Source: Phycisphaerae bacterium
GTDB taxonomy: Bacteria; Planctomycetota; Phycisphaerae; Sedimentisphaerales; Anaerohalosphaeraceae
Length of the DNA: 53,447 nt
NCBI GenBank assembly: GCA_018433925.1
Contig: JAHDQI010000037.1
Span: 1 to 53,447, forward strand
Direction of reading: 5' to 3'
The translations under genes were made by a program, and so were the position numbers. Below are positions 24,031 to 33,397 of the stretch, piece after piece (the first letter of the stretch is position 1; the number at the start of each line of letters is the position of its first letter). The notes beneath the pieces are model-generated. The model ran no database searches. It was not told the origin of the DNA and saw only the letters and a list, made by a program, of their open reading frames with translations.

Positions 24031-27000
24031 CTAATCACATTCAGGGGCAGTACATGTCAGCCAGTTTTCCACCAATACAACCAAATCTCCGATATTCACT
24101 CGACAGTCTCCGGTCATATCCCCCGGAGGAATCGGATCACACGTAGGAGCGGTACAAGTCAGCCAGTTTGCCGCCAGCACCACCATGTCTTCGATATTCA
24201 CGCGGCAGTCTTCTGTCGTATCGCCTGGAGAAATCGGATGAAGTGCATCGCCGCAAATACCTAAAAACACGGTCGAGCCATATTCATACGCACCCATATC
24301 TACCGATGTGTTGGCAATCCGGTTGTTGCCGTCCAGATCCGCCATCAGAGTGTCCGCAATCGCCGTATTCAATCCACTGTCAATACAGGGAGAAGGGGCC
24401 GTCAACCGATAATTATCATCCTCCGTACCGGCAATATTATCCGCACCATCTGGGTCTGTAAAGTTGGGGTTTAAATTGATATTCCCTTCACCCGACCAGC
24501 CGCCGTATACATCGCTATACTCAACCCAAAAAACACCTGTGCCATAGTAGTTTATTTCACTGCCGTCGTTCCACAAGATGGAATTGTTAATGGATATTAT
24601 CGTGCTACTCGAAGTCCCTATAGATAACGCTTTGCCGGCAATCGTTGCGGCATTACCCGCAAATGTACAGTTAATCACATTGCTGATGTTACCGTCAAAC
24701 CGAATCACACCCCCTTTATCTGATTGATTGCTGTTGAAGACACAGCTTAGGATATCGGTTATTCCGGGTTCCGTGGCAACGATAGCACCACCATACCCAA
24801 CGCTTGACTGTCCAAGTATCGTCTGATTCCCAATGAAGTAACTGTTGGATATTACAACTGAATCTGACCCATAGTTCGAAATAGCACCACCATATACAGT
24901 GTCAACGGCTGCCGTATCGCCGCCGTTTTCAATGAAAATACAATCATCGATTTCGACATCACCGCTATATTGTAACCGGATAGCACCGCCGCTGCGGCTG
25001 ATGTTGCCTTCAAACCGGCAACCTTGTATCTTAGAAGATGATTTTCCTGCGTAAATAGCACCGCCATAAGTAGTAGCACTGTTTCCTATGAACTTGCAGT
25101 TTTGAAGGGTCGGTGAGCCAGTCGTCCAGACAATAAGACCACCTCCTGCATTGTGCGGTGAAGCCGATTTGGCATTGCCTCCGGAAATGGCAAACCCATC
25201 CAGAATCGTCGTCTCATCCGTATCATCCCCGATAATAACATGACGAGAATTCTCATCATTATTGGTAAAATTGGGTCCGTCGTCGCCGGCTAAATCACCG
25301 GAAAGAAGCGTCACATTGTTCTCATAATCTCTTTGGGAAAGAGAGGTTTCCGACCCCGCAAAGCCGCCGTAAACAGCAACGCCGTTCTTCAGCTCAAACG
25401 CCTCATAACAGGCAAGATCAGCATTCACATCCTGCGTGGGTTTATAGGTTCCCTCGGCAACCCAGATTTGATCACCGTATTCAGCTCTGGCCAGGGCATC
25501 CTGCAAATCACAAAAAGCATTGGTCCAACTGGAACCGTCATCTTGACCCGTTGCGTCCGCATCTACATATATCACATCATTATAACCGCCGAAATTCAAA
25601 CTGTACAATTGCCCTTTGTGGATAGTAATACGTAGCTTAATGGGTCGATTGGGAAGATCCTTTATACTCCAATCGTTCCATCGTAGCGGATAATTGACAG
25701 AGTCACCTGCAAATTCTGCACCGGAACTGCCTGAATAATTCGACAGGCCATTTCCATATTCATCCAGCACCTCTACGAGAATATAGCCATTCGGATCTGT
25801 TTTGGCATTGATATTTAATGTCTGAGCTGCAGACAAAACCTTGGTTGTCAGCGTTCCGGTATCGGTTGAATTACCCAGCCGGACCCAGCCGTCTTTGCGG
25901 TATTTTATCAGGCCCGGCGTTACTAACAAATCCTTGGTTGCATCGACGATATTGTCCCATGACGAGCCGTACCAATCCCAAATCTCCGAAGCGGGAAGTC
26001 CTTTTTCCTCGTCGCCAAACATACCATCGAATCGATTTAGAAAATACTCTTCCGTTATGTAAGAACGGTCGACTCGACCGTAAGCCGAAGTAAACATAAA
26101 ATGCGGGCCGTCCATTCCGGCAATCGGTTCAATATATTCACTGCCGGTATCCAGTCTCATTCGGATAGTATAAAAAGCAAAACCGAAATTCCAACTGCCG
26201 AATTCACCGCTATCAAAAAATGGTTGTTGATCAAACCGGTTCCATTGAATACCATCTCGGCTGTAAGCCAGATCCACACGGGTTATCTGGGTAACCTGAT
26301 TATACATTCGGACATAGCTTAGCTCCAGGGCATCTTCTTCTTCATTAAAAACATGAACGGCATAATGCTGAAGGCCGGGGGTTTCCTGTTCATCAGGCAT
26401 ATCAAAATACGTAGGGGTCCAGTTTACGCCATCCTGAGTACTCCAGGTAACCATCATTCGGCTTGCAGGAAGATTGTCATAATAGACTCTGAAAGGATCG
26501 TTTCGGGGAATGGTTCGAGCCTGGTAAAATCGAAGCGTGTTGCCGTCCATGCTCAGGTGTTCGGGGCCATAATTGTCATTGGAGTCCTGCCACTCACCGA
26601 TTTCGTTGTCATCGAACTCCCATTTACCTTTGACAATGGGCTCCGGCGTTAATATCAGATATTCGCCATTGGGTCTTTCCCAGACGGCAATCCGACTCCA
26701 GTTGGGCAGGGTTATATCACCCAATATCATCGGTTGGGATTCGGACTCATATACGGAAACCTGCCCCAGATTAACAGGTCCATCTTCTTCCGGGTCATAG
26801 TAGTCATAGCTCGGAGTACCTGAAAACTGATACTGTACTTTGGCTTTATCAAATGTGATAACGTTGTAACTGTAATCGCGATTCTCCGGCTCTGACACAA
26901 TACTCCAGTTCTCGTAATCATCGCTGACCACCCAGTATTCAACTACATCCACCCAGTTTCCACTGGAATCTTGTCCATTTCTGCCATGCAACTTTACATA

Positions 27001-27504
27001 CATCTTTCCATCCTGGCCGATCCAGAAATCTCTCACCCAATTGATATAACGATAATAATCGGGATTTGATTCCCAGGGCGCTATGGGAATGGCCTGCCCC
27101 TCCTCAACCTCTCTGGTCAGTCCGCTTTGAGAAGCGATATACCAGTCGTCTACGAACAGGATTTTTTTTCCTGCAACGTCAATCGGCTCGCTGGGAGCCT
27201 GTGGAGCAGTAATTGTTTGCTTGCGAATGCCGCGAATCATTGTACCCGTGTCCTGAGAGCCCCCCCCCACCTCTTGTATTAATACTTCATAATCACCATC
27301 CGGCCAATTGCTAATATCAATATTTTCTTCCTGTAGTCCTCCTTGTGAAGCATAGACTGTCACTTGTATTGGGGAAGCCGGAGACGTACCGGTGATATGG
27401 TCGCGAAATGTCAACTCAACATCAATGTCATTAACCCCCCAATATTGGAAAGCCAATATTGCAGTATTGTCGTTCAAATAAGCCGATCGAACGGATTCGA
27501 CCTC
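24031..27504 (-). repeat. Long-tail cassette copy 1 (about 3.47 kb), paralogous to 28964-32443
   Basis: Colinear similarity to 28964-32443 at nt level, roughly 80-90% by eye. It includes an 88-nt stretch with one mismatch (25350-25437 vs 30301-30388). Confidence 0.85.
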
Positions 27505-32443: not shown

Positions 32444-33397
32444 CTTAAGACGCTCACTTAACAACAACACTTCATTACATAGAAAATGGCTCGGGCCCAA
32501 AGCACCATCCGAAATCCGCACTTCGTCGATCAGTCCCTGGTATCGATTCGTATGGACTTTATTCACCAATTCACGGTAAAATACCCAACTCCCACCGTGC
32601 CAGGTGGACGCGATGTCATGATCCGTACTCAGGGTCGTATCCGGACTGCCGGATGATGTTATATCCAGGGCGGCTGCCACCTCTGTTTCCCCTCCCTCAG
32701 TAATATTGGTCAAATACAGCGTCAAGGTAATTCCATCACTTACGACTGCCGCATGATACCACGTGCCTGTTAGCCCTGTCGGATCCGTACTGTAATCAAA
32801 TCCCTGTATGGCGTTAGAAGCAGACTGAACCACATGTTTATAGCCGGATACATCGACGAAAAATGCCTCCACCGACAAATTGCTCATTTTGACGCGAAGC
32901 ACAAAGGCGGCGGCCCCCGGCTCTGCCGTACAAATATTATAAGCATCCCGATTTACAATGGTACCGTACTCGCCGGCTCCCGGGGGATCCTGTACGTTTC
33001 CCGGATTAAAAATCGCCTCCACTGTAAATTGAGCCGGAGCAATCCGTTCCGCGTCAATGCCGGAGGGCATGCTGTAGGCCGAGTAGGTAAGCGTTCCGGG
33101 CTTGGTCCCCCAGTTTTGCATACTGAACTGATTCATCCGTCTCGTTTGCGGAACAACGGAAAAAGGCAGATTATTTCGAAACCAAAACGAACTGTTATTC
33201 GGAGCATCCGACCAAACTTTTACATGGTTTCCATTTCCTGAAACATCCGGGATGTCCTCCGAATAATAATACCCATCCTGTTCGGTCGGAACCACTGTAT
33301 TGGCGGGGCCTGCATCAAATGTCCAATAAGCCACCGTCGCGGCATACAACGGAAAACCTGCCGCTAACACCCCCCAAACTATTGATTTAAACGTCAT
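28964..33397 (-). CDS. Giant exported protein, 'head A + long tail': LamG head plus the same ~1,160-aa core as 24031-28848
   Basis: GAGAGGA lies upstream of ATG 33397. Signal peptide MTFKSIVWGVLAAGFPLYA|ATVAYW. LamG motifs are DVSGNGNHVKVWSD and IDEVRISDGALGPSHF. The core from VESVRSAYLN to the C-terminal GDLTEDCRVTLEDMVVLAANWLVCTAPACD and GDLTEDCKVNIRDLAVLAENWLACTVPECD is colinear with the neighbouring gene. Confidence 0.85.
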   Translation of the reverse strand: MTFKSIVWGVLAAGFPLYAATVAYWTFDAGPANTVVPTEQDGYYYSEDIPDVSGNGNHVKVWSDAPNNSSFWFRNNLPFSVVPQTRRMNQFSMQNWGTKPGTLTYSAYSMPSGIDAERIAPAQFTVEAIFNPGNVQDPPGAGEYGTIVNRDAYNICTAEPGAAAFVLRVKMSNLSVEAFFVDVSGYKHVVQSASNAIQGFDYSTDPTGLTGTWYHAAVVSDGITLTLYLTNITEGGETEVAAALDITSSGSPDTTLSTDHDIASTWHGGSWVFYRELVNKVHTNRYQGLIDEVRISDGALGPSHFLCNEVLLLSERLKVESVRSAYLNKNTAMLAFQCFDDDDIRVELTFRDPVTGTSPVSPMQVTVYASQGLQEENIDITNWPDGDYEVRIREVREDGQDTGLLIRGIRKQTIVAPPDPTEPIDVAGRKMLFVDDWYIASQSGLNREVEPCRTIPIEPWKTDPDYFRYHTWVTDFRIGKDQKMYVELYGRNGMSNGAAQDELKYWVVSDDYENWDVAAEPEDRDYGYDMITFDKTKVKNLFLGTPSYRYYDPEEDGPVNLSQVSVYKVKPGLVLGDITIPYWCRIAVWERPNGEYLILTPEPIVRVKGEFEDNEIGQWQDANDNYGPEHLSRDGNTLRFYQTRNIPRNDPLRVYYDNILASRILVAWSSQDGVTWSPAYFEVPDECETFALQHYGVFVFDEEEHALELSYVRMYDQADQKLSADLAYSRDGILWNRFSQQPFLENGEFGSWNFGYSYFPESRTRLDNGREYFEPIFGINVLHFMFLTAYDRKDRSYITTDYYLNRFEGRLAGEGGIPDSEIWDWYGSSWDHIVDATKNMVITPALIKYRKDGWVRLGQATDTGMMTTKILSAGSKLNINAKTDPNGYILVEVLDQYGTDLPEYSGDSGALFAGDSVNSPLRWNDRSITDLPNQPVKLRITIYKGQLYSLNFGGYNNVIYVDADATGQNDGSGWADAFCDLQNALASAEYGDQIWVAEGVYKPTQDVNADLACYEAFELKNGVAVYGGFAGSETALSQRDYKNHETILSGDLAGDDGPNFTNNDENSRHIIIGDDTDAATILDGFTITGGRAGDAASPHNAGGGLIVWTTGSPTLRNCTFTGNSATTYGGAIYAGKSSMKIQSCRFEKNISRSGGAIRLQYSGDVEIDDCIFIENGGSTETIETRYGGAVSNWDADSPVISNSYFIGNQTTLSLTNVGYGGAIMMEPGTTAHIRNCVFNGNKAGRGGAIQLGANQFSDTQSSDIINCTFAGNAAMISGKGISGTSSGTAVVSVRNSILWDGNSEISYNSDLFSVEYSNVYGGWPGEGNVSLLPNFIDPEGADHVAGTEDDDYRLTIPSACIDSGNNAVVPANLLADIDGNNRISNTTVDMGAYEYGSTPFLGVCGDALHPIPPGDLTEDCRVTLEDMVVLAANWLVCTAPACDPIPPGDLTEDCKVNIRDLAVLAENWLACTVPECD

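Follow-up and report, generated by a model that had tools for sequence, protein, structure and literature searches.

Two adjacent genes of a Phycisphaerae bacterium, here called A and B, probably encode secreted, multi-domain glycan-degrading enzymes that are likely tethered to the cell surface, a reading to which we assign a probability of about 0.6. Both genes lie on the reverse strand of the window (the whole 53,447-nucleotide stretch of DNA analyzed here), as do all features described below unless stated otherwise. ORF A (24031..28917) spans 1628 aa as the longest ORF, and ORF B (28964..33397; 1477 aa) consists of a LamG head and the core that it shares with A. The true start of A is probably Met24 at 28848, giving a protein of 1605 aa; the ATG of a partial paralog, ORF E, aligns with Met24, and self-BLAST of the window shows that A-E homology begins 13 nt upstream of that ATG. 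A promoter-like site (11/12) is found at 28945-28916.

The shared core, C-terminal in both proteins and about 1,160 residues long, is recovered as a single colinear BLAST match (A residues 466-1628 versus B residues 312-1477, with 78.3% nucleotide and 72.7% amino acid identity). Window self-BLAST places it at 24030-27510 and 28963-32452, within about 10 nt of the limits given in the initial annotation, which had described the cores as colinear and very similar. In order, the core comprises an Ig-like domain, a β-propeller, a β-sandwich, a Pmp-repeat β-helix ending in a choice-of-anchor-Q domain, and two 34-aa dockerin-like segments. A signal peptide can be read in both sequences; together with the anchor-type modules at the C terminus, it makes the surface location proposed earlier plausible. 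With ω between 0.12 and 0.27 in every domain, purifying selection is still acting on both copies.

A 640-residue module with a predicted propeller

The putative catalytic unit is a 640-aa module formed by the first three parts of the core, at residues 472-1112 of A and 319-955 of B. In A, it begins with the Ig-like (macroglobulin-like) domain (27217..27504), which starts at VESVRSAYLN and forms seven strands in the AlphaFold2 model (residues 1 to 96). The β-propeller and a helical linker follow (25930..27192), with an LFVDDWY motif, two Asp-boxes (STQDGVNW and SRDGIQW) and an EF-hand-like loop (YDPEEDGPVNL). At the C-terminal end lies the β-sandwich (25582..25929, from GYILVEVLD to LYSLNFGG; model strands 528 to 638), which remote relatives share more widely than any other part of the module. 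The equivalent module of B (30533..32443) is 72% identical at the amino acid level. The domain order that had been read from the letters is reproduced by the model (mean pLDDT 92.4, pTM 0.90) and by Foldseek.

Foldseek searches of the PDB with the module are led by GH32, BT_0996, an endo-levanase, a GalNAc deacetylase, the endo-arabinanase EndoMA1, GH43, GH117, and GH130 (E values of 3e-8 to 1e-4, probability 1.0), and they also return complement C3 and TEP1, which we attribute to the Ig-like domain. The region opening with KILFVDDWY does start a propeller, as first suggested; its best structural matches are five-bladed glycosidases, and it is most probably five-bladed itself. The TM-scores are low (0.2 to 0.38), and identity to the nearest folds (GH137, GH32, GH43, and the GalNAc deacetylase) is about 10%; therefore, the relationship to known folds holds at the superfamily level only.

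The best domain-level match of the propeller is the GH137 β-L-arabinofuranosidase formed by the N-terminal domain of BT_0996 (5mt2 and 5mui; E=1.2e-8, probability 1.0), which ranks second for the whole module. PMC10850190 places BT_0996 of Bacteroides thetaiotaomicron in GH137, with a role in the breakdown of rhamnogalacturonan-II, a complex pectin. However, the GH137 domain is only about 10% identical, aligns with TM-scores of 0.30 to 0.38, and is missed by both single-sequence and profile searches of PDB sequences. Compared with it, the module adds the N-terminal Ig-like domain, the C-terminal β-sandwich, and roughly 50 inserted residues that include the EF-hand-like loop. The GH32 (clan GH-J) fructofuranosidases and levanases (6nob, 1uyp, and 6r3r) likewise have an N-terminal propeller followed by a C-terminal β-sandwich, and GH32 ranks first when the whole module is compared (E=2.9e-8). 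One compact remote relative scores locally above the Glyco_hydro_32N threshold (6.8e-8), its alignment to the Pfam profile being out of register, whereas A and B have no Glyco_hydro_32N match, and the WMNDPNG motif is absent from their translations.

The initial annotation had called the core uncharacterized, and this holds for the module, which is covered by neither a Pfam nor an NCBIfam model and for which single-sequence and profile searches of PDB sequences identified no structurally solved relative. Our family set includes 32 full-length homologs, in none of which Pfam annotates a domain in the region of the module, along with 5,473 remote matches and about 100 cluster representatives of full length; one member is fused to a GH84/GH20-like domain. 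The nine genome loci studied all belong to Planctomycetota, Kiritimatiellota, Lentisphaerota, or related metagenome-assembled genomes, and all relatives identified so far in this uncharacterized protein family come from PVC-group bacteria. Fifty-three columns of the module are invariant in the family, and 53/53 are kept in both A and B. Among them are, in module numbering, D119, which closes the LFVDD entry strand, as well as D310, D343, R330, Y381, and H468; the three Asp residues and the Arg, Tyr, and His are also kept in the wider family alignment. In the predicted propeller, these residues may line a central pocket where they would act in glycosidic cleavage, by analogy with the propellers of GH43, GH32, and GH137. 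As a possible new family of carbohydrate-degrading enzymes, the module is thus a credible candidate; it does not amount to a new kind of system.

Gene context and alternative activities

A and B sit in a tightly packed row of same-strand genes (19540..36686; gaps of 42 to 106 nt), assigned by Pfam as a KDPG/KHG-type aldolase, a GH146-like β-L-arabinofuranosidase, B, A, a PfkB sugar-acid kinase, an Nramp-type divalent-metal transporter, and a GH51-type α-L-arabinofuranosidase. The row thus holds both β-L- and α-L-arabinofuranosidase genes, in keeping with the GH137 likeness. A XylR/AraC-type regulator (36888-38048, forward strand) is transcribed divergently from it. The GH146-like gene matches the PDB sequences 5opj (1.8e-136) and 8k7x/8k7y, the latter being Bifidobacterium GH146 structures (PMC10850190).

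The neighbors of family members differ between loci, with several recurrent themes. The set of Nramp, PfkB, and aldolase genes recurs in L004 and L015, BNR_2 proteins in L001, L005, L006, L013, L014, L015, and L096, and GH78 rhamnosidase or rhamnose catabolism genes in L001, L004, L096, and among L005-L013, where four neighboring ORFs match the GH78 catalytic-domain model; the window itself has no GH78. This context points to an acidic glycan with rhamnose and arabinofuranose as the likely substrate, of the pectin, arabinogalactan-protein, or algal type, whose acid sugars would feed the 2-keto-3-deoxy-acid kinase and aldolase steps.

The propeller could also be catalytic without being a glycoside hydrolase, acting as a metal-dependent deacetylase or esterase or as a β-elimination lyase; we regard this as unlikely, albeit the strongest competitor on function. 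The GalNAc deacetylase of Flavonifractor plautii (6n1a and 6n1b), which we take to be a five-bladed propeller with a metal-dependent mechanism, is the only solved protein that the family profile reaches (6n1a, E=0.02); it ranks third to fourth by fold (E of about 1e-6 to 1e-7) and, like the module, has several Asp-boxes. The profile match is, however, confined to these Asp-box motifs. The Nramp gene adjoins the kinase gene in the window as well as in L004 and L015, and it neighbors the module in L013. This adjacency, the deacetylase match, and the His, Arg, and Tyr residues invariant across the wide family would be as compatible with a metal-dependent or lyase reaction as with hydrolysis. For the lyase form, whose unsaturated uronate products would be passed on to 2-keto-3-deoxygluconate (KDG) kinase and KDPG aldolase, one may cite the ulvan lyase propeller 7drq among the Foldseek matches and the recurrence beside family members of PfkB with a KDPG-type aldolase, or of HpcH aldolases. 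On the other hand, the scanned ORFs of the window include no KduI/KduD-type gene, the three carboxylates are kept, like those of GH43- and GH32-type sites, and hydrolases top the fold matches. Glycosidic hydrolysis is the activity that we favor.

Distinctly less probable is that A and B are non-catalytic adhesins or lectins, in which glycan binding would be the sole role of the propeller and the entire protein would be a Pmp-like adhesin. Binding and display proteins typically carry a Pmp-repeat β-helix, a LamG head, and dockerin-like tags, and the low TM-scores and the absence of a family-level match to a characterized enzyme would fit this idea. Yet most family members are stand-alone secreted proteins of about 660 aa, with neither helix nor head, and members occur within sugar-catabolic gene rows (GH78, GH146, GH51, kinases, and aldolases). 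The invariant polar and charged residues and the ω of the propeller (about 0.12 to 0.21) also argue for an enzyme.

Tail and interchangeable heads

Downstream of the module, A carries a right-handed β-helix with Pmp-type repeats (FxxN ... GGAI; 24418..25581), matched by Chlam_PMP and TIGR01376, whose N-terminal cap runs from YVDADATGQDDGSSW to IWVAEGTYKPT. It is followed by the choice-of-anchor-Q domain (24280..24417; residues 1501-1546, NF041518 at 30.9 bits versus a cut-off of 25). The helix recognized initially is thus confirmed by models above their cut-offs and by the PF13229 annotation of its homologs. The equivalent tail of B, with its helix, choice-of-anchor-Q domain, and two dockerin-like segments, occupies 28967..30532. 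The C-terminal 516 aa, which pass the cut-offs of all three models, have more than 2,500 homologs at 35 to 45% identity, whose source annotations read "parallel beta-helix" or "outer membrane repeat protein" and in which the same helix is joined to many unrelated domains and sorting tags. Compared with Pmp-repeat/choice-of-anchor-Q surface proteins (Chlamydia Pmp repeats; Rhombotarget A, 9cdu), the helix here comes after an enzyme-like module, and the protein ends in the Cys-containing dockerin-like segments, with no autotransporter barrel or recognized sorting signal.

The earlier proposal of a bifunctional enzyme, in its hydrolase-plus-lyase form with the helix as a second, lyase-like catalytic domain, is highly improbable: polysaccharide lyases and GH28 enzymes do occur among right-handed β-helices, and the homologs carry the generic Beta_helix (PF13229) and NosD (PF05048) models, but the repeats are of the Pmp type, neither the homologs nor the profile search of PDB sequences gave a polysaccharide-lyase or GH28 signal (the only PDB entries that the profile matches are Rhombotarget A and a giant membrane protein from a ciliate), and the same helix is joined to so many unrelated domains and sorting tags. 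The β-helix thus appears to be an ordinary surface module and not a lyase, and the tail as a whole may serve as stalk and anchor.

The dockerin-like repeats reported at the C terminus are real 34-aa tandem units, although they stay below the Pfam Dockerin_1 threshold (19.7 bits versus 22.9; E=1e-3). In A, these two Cys-containing segments form an internal repeat (24034..24261), with 78.8% nucleotide identity between 24034-24137 and 24136-24239 in the window self-BLAST, and single copies of the same tag terminate five other ORFs of the window. This organization is reminiscent of cellulosome-type or surface-anchored CAZymes (catalytic module, CBM, and dockerin): A and B likewise combine a catalytic-type module, interchangeable binding heads, and a dockerin-like tag that is common to several secreted proteins of the locus. 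They differ in the sub-threshold score of the tag, in the absence of a cohesin from the scanned window ORFs, and in having N-terminal heads duplicated in a 2x2 pattern.

The heads are probable carbohydrate binders. Head S of A (27515..28861) spans about 445 aa of repeats in which GGT motifs recur; it matches no Pfam family and is probably a β-solenoid. Its paralog forms the N-terminal part of ORF E (17735-19093; 76.4% nucleotide and 73% amino acid identity, dS 0.85), an ORF with a weak, sub-threshold Cthe_2159 match. Head L of B (32473..33388), a LamG (concanavalin-like) domain, has its paralog in the N-terminal part of ORF F (10912-11830; 65.8% and 60% identity, respectively, dS 1.30); Laminin_G_3 scores 26.7 bits for the copy in B and 35 bits for that in F. 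ORF E (17017..19080; 687 aa) and ORF F (10088..11869; 593 aa) continue from their heads into a PKD-like short tail and one dockerin-like segment, the two tails being 33% identical. Since the heads of A and B each have a paralog in E or F, the four genes form a 2x2 head/tail matrix, a duplication elsewhere in the window that is new here. Among relatives, LamG precedes the core in one ORF in P0160 (locus L015) and is a separate ORF just upstream of P0156 in L014.

Probable conversion and history of the two copies

A near-identical stretch of 88 nt with one mismatch (25350-25437 versus 30301-30388) had been taken as a sign of recombination between the cores. It is present at this place, as 88 of 89 nt (25349-25437, reverse strand, versus 30300-30388), and falls within a larger, probable A-B gene conversion tract of about 0.66 kb (24919..25578; partner in B at roughly 29867-30529). 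As an RNA element, the stretch was rejected (no Rfam match; folding z-score 0.06). A run that long arose in 0 of 5000 codon-column shuffles (p<2e-4), in a test that ignores amino acid conservation.

Recombination between the copies gained support when relatives were added, the analysis using one close relative, P0156 (C in the comparisons below), from a long-read metagenome contig with an apparent frameshift. In the tract, 82 of 160 sites are of the A=B≠C type, versus 32% overall (permutation p<=0.002; about 0.02 in a synonymous-only version), dS is 0.44 for AB versus 0.78 for AC and 0.98 for BC, and the A-B grouping has 99.6% bootstrap support, with seven shared-derived amino acids for AB and none for BC. 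In contrast, the propeller and the distal helix group B with P0156 (15 and 11 shared-derived residues for BC versus 6 and 4 for AB), and they differ in this from the proximal helix (Fisher p=0.0006-0.0014).

Strong amino acid conservation in the β-helix cap, plus synonymous chance, could produce the near-identical 88 nt with no conversion, a possible but doubtful explanation. The run of identical synonymous codons is marginal once conditioned on amino acid identity (p=0.04-0.15), and the same segment is also above average in P0156 (0.82-0.87 nucleotide identity). However, the stretch lies inside 0.5-0.66 kb where A and B are mutually closest, even synonymously, and the opposite grouping of propeller and distal helix likewise speaks for conversion.

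The copies are not "kept homogenised", as had been claimed, given an overall A-B dS of 0.74 (0.44 to 1.18 between domains); conversion between them appears patchy and old, not ongoing. B represents the older architecture, of which relatives exist, and A a copy of the core joined to a copy of E's head. The propeller of A then evolved faster at the amino acid level, and about 0.66 kb of the β-helix was probably converted between A and B after that. This succession, with B older, the head joined, and conversion later, is shown statistically, through comparison of the sequences.

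A propeller module shared by two tandem genes

Two adjacent minus-strand ORFs, A (24031-28917, 1628 aa) and B (28964-33397, 1477 aa), share a C-terminal core. BLAST aligns A residues 466-1628 with B residues 312-1477 in a single colinear match (78.3% nucleotide and 72.7% amino acid identity), lying at 24030-27510 and 28963-32452 when the window is compared with itself; the N-terminal parts of A and B are mutually unrelated. Pfam and NCBIfam recognize the core only in its C-terminal third, and searching PDB sequences with the core returned no chain at E<=1. The first 640 aa of the core, hereafter the module, belong to a family of their own. 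With A residues 472-1112 as the query, 32 full-length homologs were found, the best 45% identical; they are mostly stand-alone proteins of 640-700 aa, two of them from Tichowtungia aerotolerans (Kiritimatiellota), and none of the 32 has a Pfam domain in the module region. An exhaustive profile search yielded ~100 full-length cluster representatives, along with thousands of remote relatives whose common part is mainly the last blades and the sandwich. The reference-genome scan identified nine loci, all in Planctomycetota, Kiritimatiellota, Lentisphaerota or related MAGs, and none close. With the core as query, a scan of metagenomes gave no relatives other than those of the beta-helix (~35% identity, via a common VDMGAYEY motif) and is uninformative on orthology.

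The AlphaFold2 model of the module, built from the family alignment (mean pLDDT 92.4, pTM 0.90), opens with an Ig-like domain of seven strands, continues through a large, all-beta propeller region and a short helical linker, and closes with a beta-sandwich. Modeling the propeller alone gave a worse result, with the first 30 residues, including the LFVDD strand, disordered, and we assume from this that blade one depends on the remainder of the module; the Foldseek ranking agreed with that of the full module, the TM-scores still being low. Among PDB structures, the leading Foldseek entries are GH32, BT_0996 (GH137), the endo-levanase BT1760, the F. plautii GalNAc deacetylase and the endo-arabinanase EndoMA1, followed by GH43, GH117 and GH130 entries, all with a probability of 1.0 yet only ~10% identity and TM-scores of 0.2-0.38. 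Sialidases trail the five-bladed families by about four orders of magnitude. The profile of the module family reached one PDB chain, the deacetylase 6n1a (E=0.02), through Asp-box motifs only. The fold matches, their ~10% identity and this lone profile match therefore argue for a superfamily-level relationship: by its predicted fold, the module falls in the broad propeller superfamily that contains GH32, GH43, GH130 and GH137 enzymes. The propeller is probably five-bladed, because the best fold matches are and because the Asp-box spacing in compact relatives of ~470 aa agrees.

On Pfam and NCBIfam models and on PDB sequence and fold comparisons, the module could be placed in no described family. 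GH137 provides the best Foldseek match to the propeller (probability 1.0, with a TM-score of only 0.30-0.38), but there is no significant sequence similarity to the N-terminal domain of BT_0996, and the family profile misses 5mt2 at E<=10. For GH32 (clan GH-J), Glyco_hydro_32N is unmatched in A, B and a 31-member alignment, and the WMNDPNG and RDP motifs are not found as such: the entry strand of the module reads LFVDDWY, and R-N-D-P stands at residues 334-337 of the module with an Asp that is not invariant. One compact remote relative scores above the Glyco_hydro_32N threshold, but its alignment is out of register. Likewise, Glyco_hydro_43 has no match in A, B or the same alignment, and the likeness to GH43 (clan GH-F) is at the level of fold only. 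For the GH33/BNR sialidases, BNR_2, the model of the six-bladed sialidase-type propeller, has no match in the module, which carries two Asp-boxes. GH181 was weighed as a candidate because sialic acid genes lie nearby. The Akkermansia sialidase Amuc_1547, for which a crystal structure with a propeller and a CBM-like sandwich has been reported (PMC12018670), was not among the top 50 Foldseek matches or the PDB sequence and profile matches, the presence of its structure in the searched PDB set being unconfirmed. Membership of the module in GH181 is unproven.

A and B both keep all 53 family-invariant positions. In the wider alignment, D119 (in LFVDD), D310 (in NDN) and D343 (in YDN), an Arg, two Tyr and a His are retained, and these residues form a plausible candidate catalytic constellation, its geometry being inferred. 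The initial annotation had named the lack of any such constellation as grounds for doubting an enzyme; such a lack is not what the wider family displays. The propeller of A further contains an invariant EF-hand-like loop, YDPEEDGPVNL (26760-26810, module residues 236-248), with weak profile matches to troponin C and calmodulin, which is probably a structural calcium site.

We put the probability that the module of A and B is a glycan-active enzyme with its active site in the propeller at about 0.6, and our confidence in any particular substrate is much lower. The main rival is a propeller with non-hydrolytic chemistry, that of a deacetylase or a lyase; the F. plautii GalNAc deacetylase appears in both the fold and the profile searches, in the first beside several glycoside hydrolase families and in the second through the Asp-boxes. 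A purely binding role is less likely. Uncharacterized propeller proteins are common in the glycan degradation loci of PVC bacteria, and neither CAZymes with propellers nor Pmp-type helices nor modular surface enzymes are novel. A and B, familiar in their tail, tags and overall design, do not represent a system of a new kind; their module is a family that lacks annotation and stands at superfamily distance from the propeller CAZymes known so far. If it is an enzyme, it would define a new CAZyme family, and ~100 clusters in Planctomycetota, Kiritimatiellota and Lentisphaerota presently lack annotation for it.

Common tails and interchangeable heads

Behind the module, the core passes the cutoffs of three profiles in A and B, respectively: PF02415 (Chlam_PMP; 23.3 and 32.4 bits, cutoff 20.6), TIGR01376 (29.1 and 31.4 bits, cutoff 15) and NF041518 (choice-of-anchor-Q; 30.9 and 27.1 bits, cutoff 25). 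These 516 aa have more than 2,500 homologs at 35-45% identity, which the sources name right-handed parallel beta-helix, choice-of-anchor-Q or outer-membrane-repeat proteins, and the homologous helices are coupled to many different partner domains and sorting tags. Against the PDB, the profile of the helix family found just two proteins, Rhombotarget A and a giant membrane protein of a ciliate, and neither a lyase nor a GH28. Judged from this range of partners and from the profile matches, the beta-helix is a module of a common type that serves as surface element or stalk. At its end, the core has 76 aa that consist of two tandem 34-aa units that are half-dockerin-like; only one of the two segments aligns with Dockerin_1, below the cutoff (19.7 and 19.3 bits against 22.9). 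Single segments of this kind (GD.N.DC.V.L.DL..L...W; at 2307-2369, 9683-9742, 17044-17106, 47566-47625 and 49387-49446) occur in five other ORFs of the window, which encode secreted proteins, at or near the C terminus in four of the five. These ORFs include a GH99-like protein, and others have a LamG match alone or no Pfam match. With copies on so many ORFs, the tag seems to be a device that the organism uses generally for anchoring or sorting; no cohesin was found among the window ORFs scanned.

The N-terminal 442 aa of A have essentially one relative, encoded in the window itself by ORF E (17017-19080): A residues 27-471 and E residues 3-452 are 73% identical (DNA 76.4%, dS 0.85; self-BLAST and BLASTP). 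Because homology to E begins there, the real start of A is probably Met24 (28848), the longest ORF beginning too early. ORF F (10088-11869) may likewise start later, at its second Met. Promoter and terminator scans stayed at background level, save for one promoter-like site with an 11/12 sigma-70-like match (28945-28916) just upstream of Met24 of A. The head of B corresponds to that of F (B residues 1-308 against F residues 11-319; 60% amino acid identity, DNA 65.8%, dS 1.30) and matches Laminin_G_3 (PF13385) marginally, at 26.7 bits against a cutoff of 27.6, F itself reaching 35 bits. The short tails of E and F share 33% identity; each is PKD-like and carries a single dockerin-like segment. 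On sequence, the four genes represent every pairing of two heads with two tails, which is new here, and both junctions between head and core fall directly before (K/E)VESVRSAYLN, with which the Ig-like domain begins. A 106-nt element, 78% identical between its copies at 12023-12128 and 19268-19370, lies ~150-290 nt upstream of F and E and contains a perfect TATAAT box; the two genes that join a head to a short tail thus seem to share a duplicated promoter or leader.

Elsewhere, a LamG region precedes the core in two relatives from one metagenome, P0160 (a single ORF in L015) and P0156. At the locus of P0156, the closest relative (L014, 8921-13471), separate ORFs with 42 nt between them are called for the LamG head and for the core, LamG being upstream; this split is probably a frameshift error of the long-read assembly. 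The head of A and E was found outside E only as a few weak matches (24-29% identity) to proteins of ~350 aa. The best reading of A is therefore a chimera particular to its lineage, in which a copied core is joined to a copied head of E; the core and head duplications are similar in age (dS 0.74 and 0.85). The set of four, with its embedded conversion tract, is a neat evolutionary case: it offers a clean natural example of domain shuffling and gene conversion within one locus and could be used for studying how binding modules retarget a catalytic cassette.

Probable recombination between the two cores

The initial annotation reported an 88-nt stretch with one mismatch between the cores, and the codon-aware alignment recovers it as an 89-nt run with one mismatch (25349-25437 and 30300-30388). 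A run of this length did not occur in 5000 codon-column shuffles. All of its 30 codons encode identical amino acids in A and B, and, given that identity, the unbroken agreement in synonymous codon choice has no more than marginal significance (p=0.04-0.15). An RNA element as the cause was ruled out, since Rfam had no match and the stretch folds like shuffled sequence (z=0.06).

A codon alignment was made of A, B, P0156 and the outgroup P0160. The core of P0156 shares 72% identity with A and 79% with B, and that of P0160 ~61%. The dS values for A-B, A-P0156 and B-P0156 are 1.09, 0.62 and 0.94 in the Ig-like domain; 0.87, 0.98 and 0.72 in the propeller; 0.68, 0.82 and 0.62 in the sandwich; 0.44, 0.78 and 0.98 in the proximal helix; 1.18, 0.96 and 1.14 in the distal helix; and 0.53, 0.83 and 0.88 at the C terminus. 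At synonymous sites, the closest pair is A-B in the proximal helix (bootstrap 99.6%) and at the C terminus (91%), B-P0156 in the propeller (86%) and A-P0156 in the Ig-like domain (88%). Sites at which A and B agree against P0156 are in local excess at 25578-24919 (82/160 versus 32% overall, p<=0.002), and a scan restricted to synonymous sites picks 25426-24913 (p about 0.02). Site-pattern tests on three sequences measure branch lengths rather than topology, and for this reason the B-P0156 excess in the propeller was taken as recombination only after polarization with P0160. Shared-derived amino acids polarized in this way favor B-P0156 in the propeller (15, against 6 for A-B) and the distal helix (11 against 4), and A-B in the proximal helix (7, against 0 for B-P0156). 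The contrast between the proximal helix and the other domains gives a Fisher p of 0.0006-0.0014, with a domain boundary partly set after seeing the data. The propeller excess is not significant at synonymous sites, and part of it reflects faster amino acid evolution in A.

In the simplest reading of these patterns, the duplication that gave rise to A would predate the split of B and P0156 and would have been followed by an A-B conversion of ~0.66 kb that included the 88-nt stretch; the C terminus may have been converted between A and B too. The proposal that recombination keeps the two copies homogenized, as a continuous process, does not hold: even the converted part has a dS of 0.44 (overall 0.74). 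Lineage-specific substitutions in the propeller number 32 in A and 12 in B (Tajima test, p=0.0026), and omega is 0.12-0.27 in every core domain; for A, this pattern fits functional divergence better than decay.

Genomic neighborhood and possible substrates

A and B lie in a tight same-strand row (gaps of 42-106 nt) that runs from a KDPG/KHG-type aldolase and a GH146-like beta-L-arabinofuranosidase through B and A to a PfkB sugar-acid kinase, Nramp and a GH51-type alpha-L-arabinofuranosidase, with a gene for a XylR/AraC-type regulator divergent from it. The GH146 assignment is based on PDB matches to 5opj (1.8e-136), which we take to be BT0349, and to Bifidobacterium GH146 structures (PMC10850190). 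Nramp, PfkB and a KDPG-type aldolase also stand beside family members in two other loci (L004 and L015), and sialidase-like BNR_2 proteins lie near family members in seven. GH78 rhamnosidases or rhamnose catabolism genes are present in L001, L004 and L096, and four GH78-type ORFs are among the neighbors in L005-L013. HpcH/HpaI aldolases recur, fucosidases occur in one locus, and one family member is fused to a GH84/GH20-like domain.

Planctomycetota, Kiritimatiellota and Lentisphaerota break down complex marine and plant glycans, with much of the enzymology still unassigned. The recurring GH78 enzymes, arabinofuranosidases, sialidase-like proteins and keto-deoxy-acid kinases and aldolases narrow the list of substrates to try and make the hypothesis of an enzyme directly testable. 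Our preferred model is that A and B are secreted, surface-tethered glycoside hydrolases with interchangeable binding heads, acting on an acidic glycan with rhamnose and arabinofuranose. We consider it rather unlikely that the module founds a CAZyme family, known to date from the PVC group alone, with a specificity outside existing families and a cassette retargeted by head swaps within the locus. Were it so, the enzyme might cut next to ulosonic or uronic acids of the Kdo or Dha type that bear rhamnose or arabinofuranose, such as those of rhamnogalacturonan-II or of scale polymers from green algae, with the co-occurring sialidase-like BNR_2 proteins as partners.

In T. aerotolerans (CP047593; L001, 10001-14595), tandem family members of 656 and 860 aa adjoin GH78, BNR_2 and genes for an MFS transporter and an IclR regulator; the module has therefore been duplicated in tandem more than once. 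The Nramp-type divalent-metal transporter gene (window 21559-22845; L004 1984-3303; L015 6438-7754; L013 3104-4390) adjoins that of the PfkB kinase in the window, L004 and L015 and lies near the module in L013, and its retention in sugar-catabolic rows may hint that the pathway includes an enzyme dependent on metal. A sialic acid utilization cluster occupies 38069-48450, with a NanM-like mutarotase fused to an SSF transporter, a GlcNAc 2-epimerase, a GDSL/SASA sialate esterase, a lyase of the DHDPS/NanA type and a pair of sialidase-like BNR_2 proteins, of which one carries LamG, and is followed by a GntR regulator (51015-52106). A URO-D-like (methyltransferase-type) gene adjoins two BNR_2 genes in the window (12053-15638), where it lies between them, and in L014 (4878-8528), where it lies just upstream of both; that its product removes methyl groups from sugars is pure speculation. 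A GH130-type phosphorylase followed by two GH99-like proteins (5165-9799) indicates that the island also holds a separate unit directed at mannosides. PEP-CTERM and prepilin-type N-methyl/DUF1559 proteins (114-893, 52149-52907, 2414-3334, 15968-16804 and 48435-49745) are typical of PVC-group genomes and thus consistent with the taxonomic placement.
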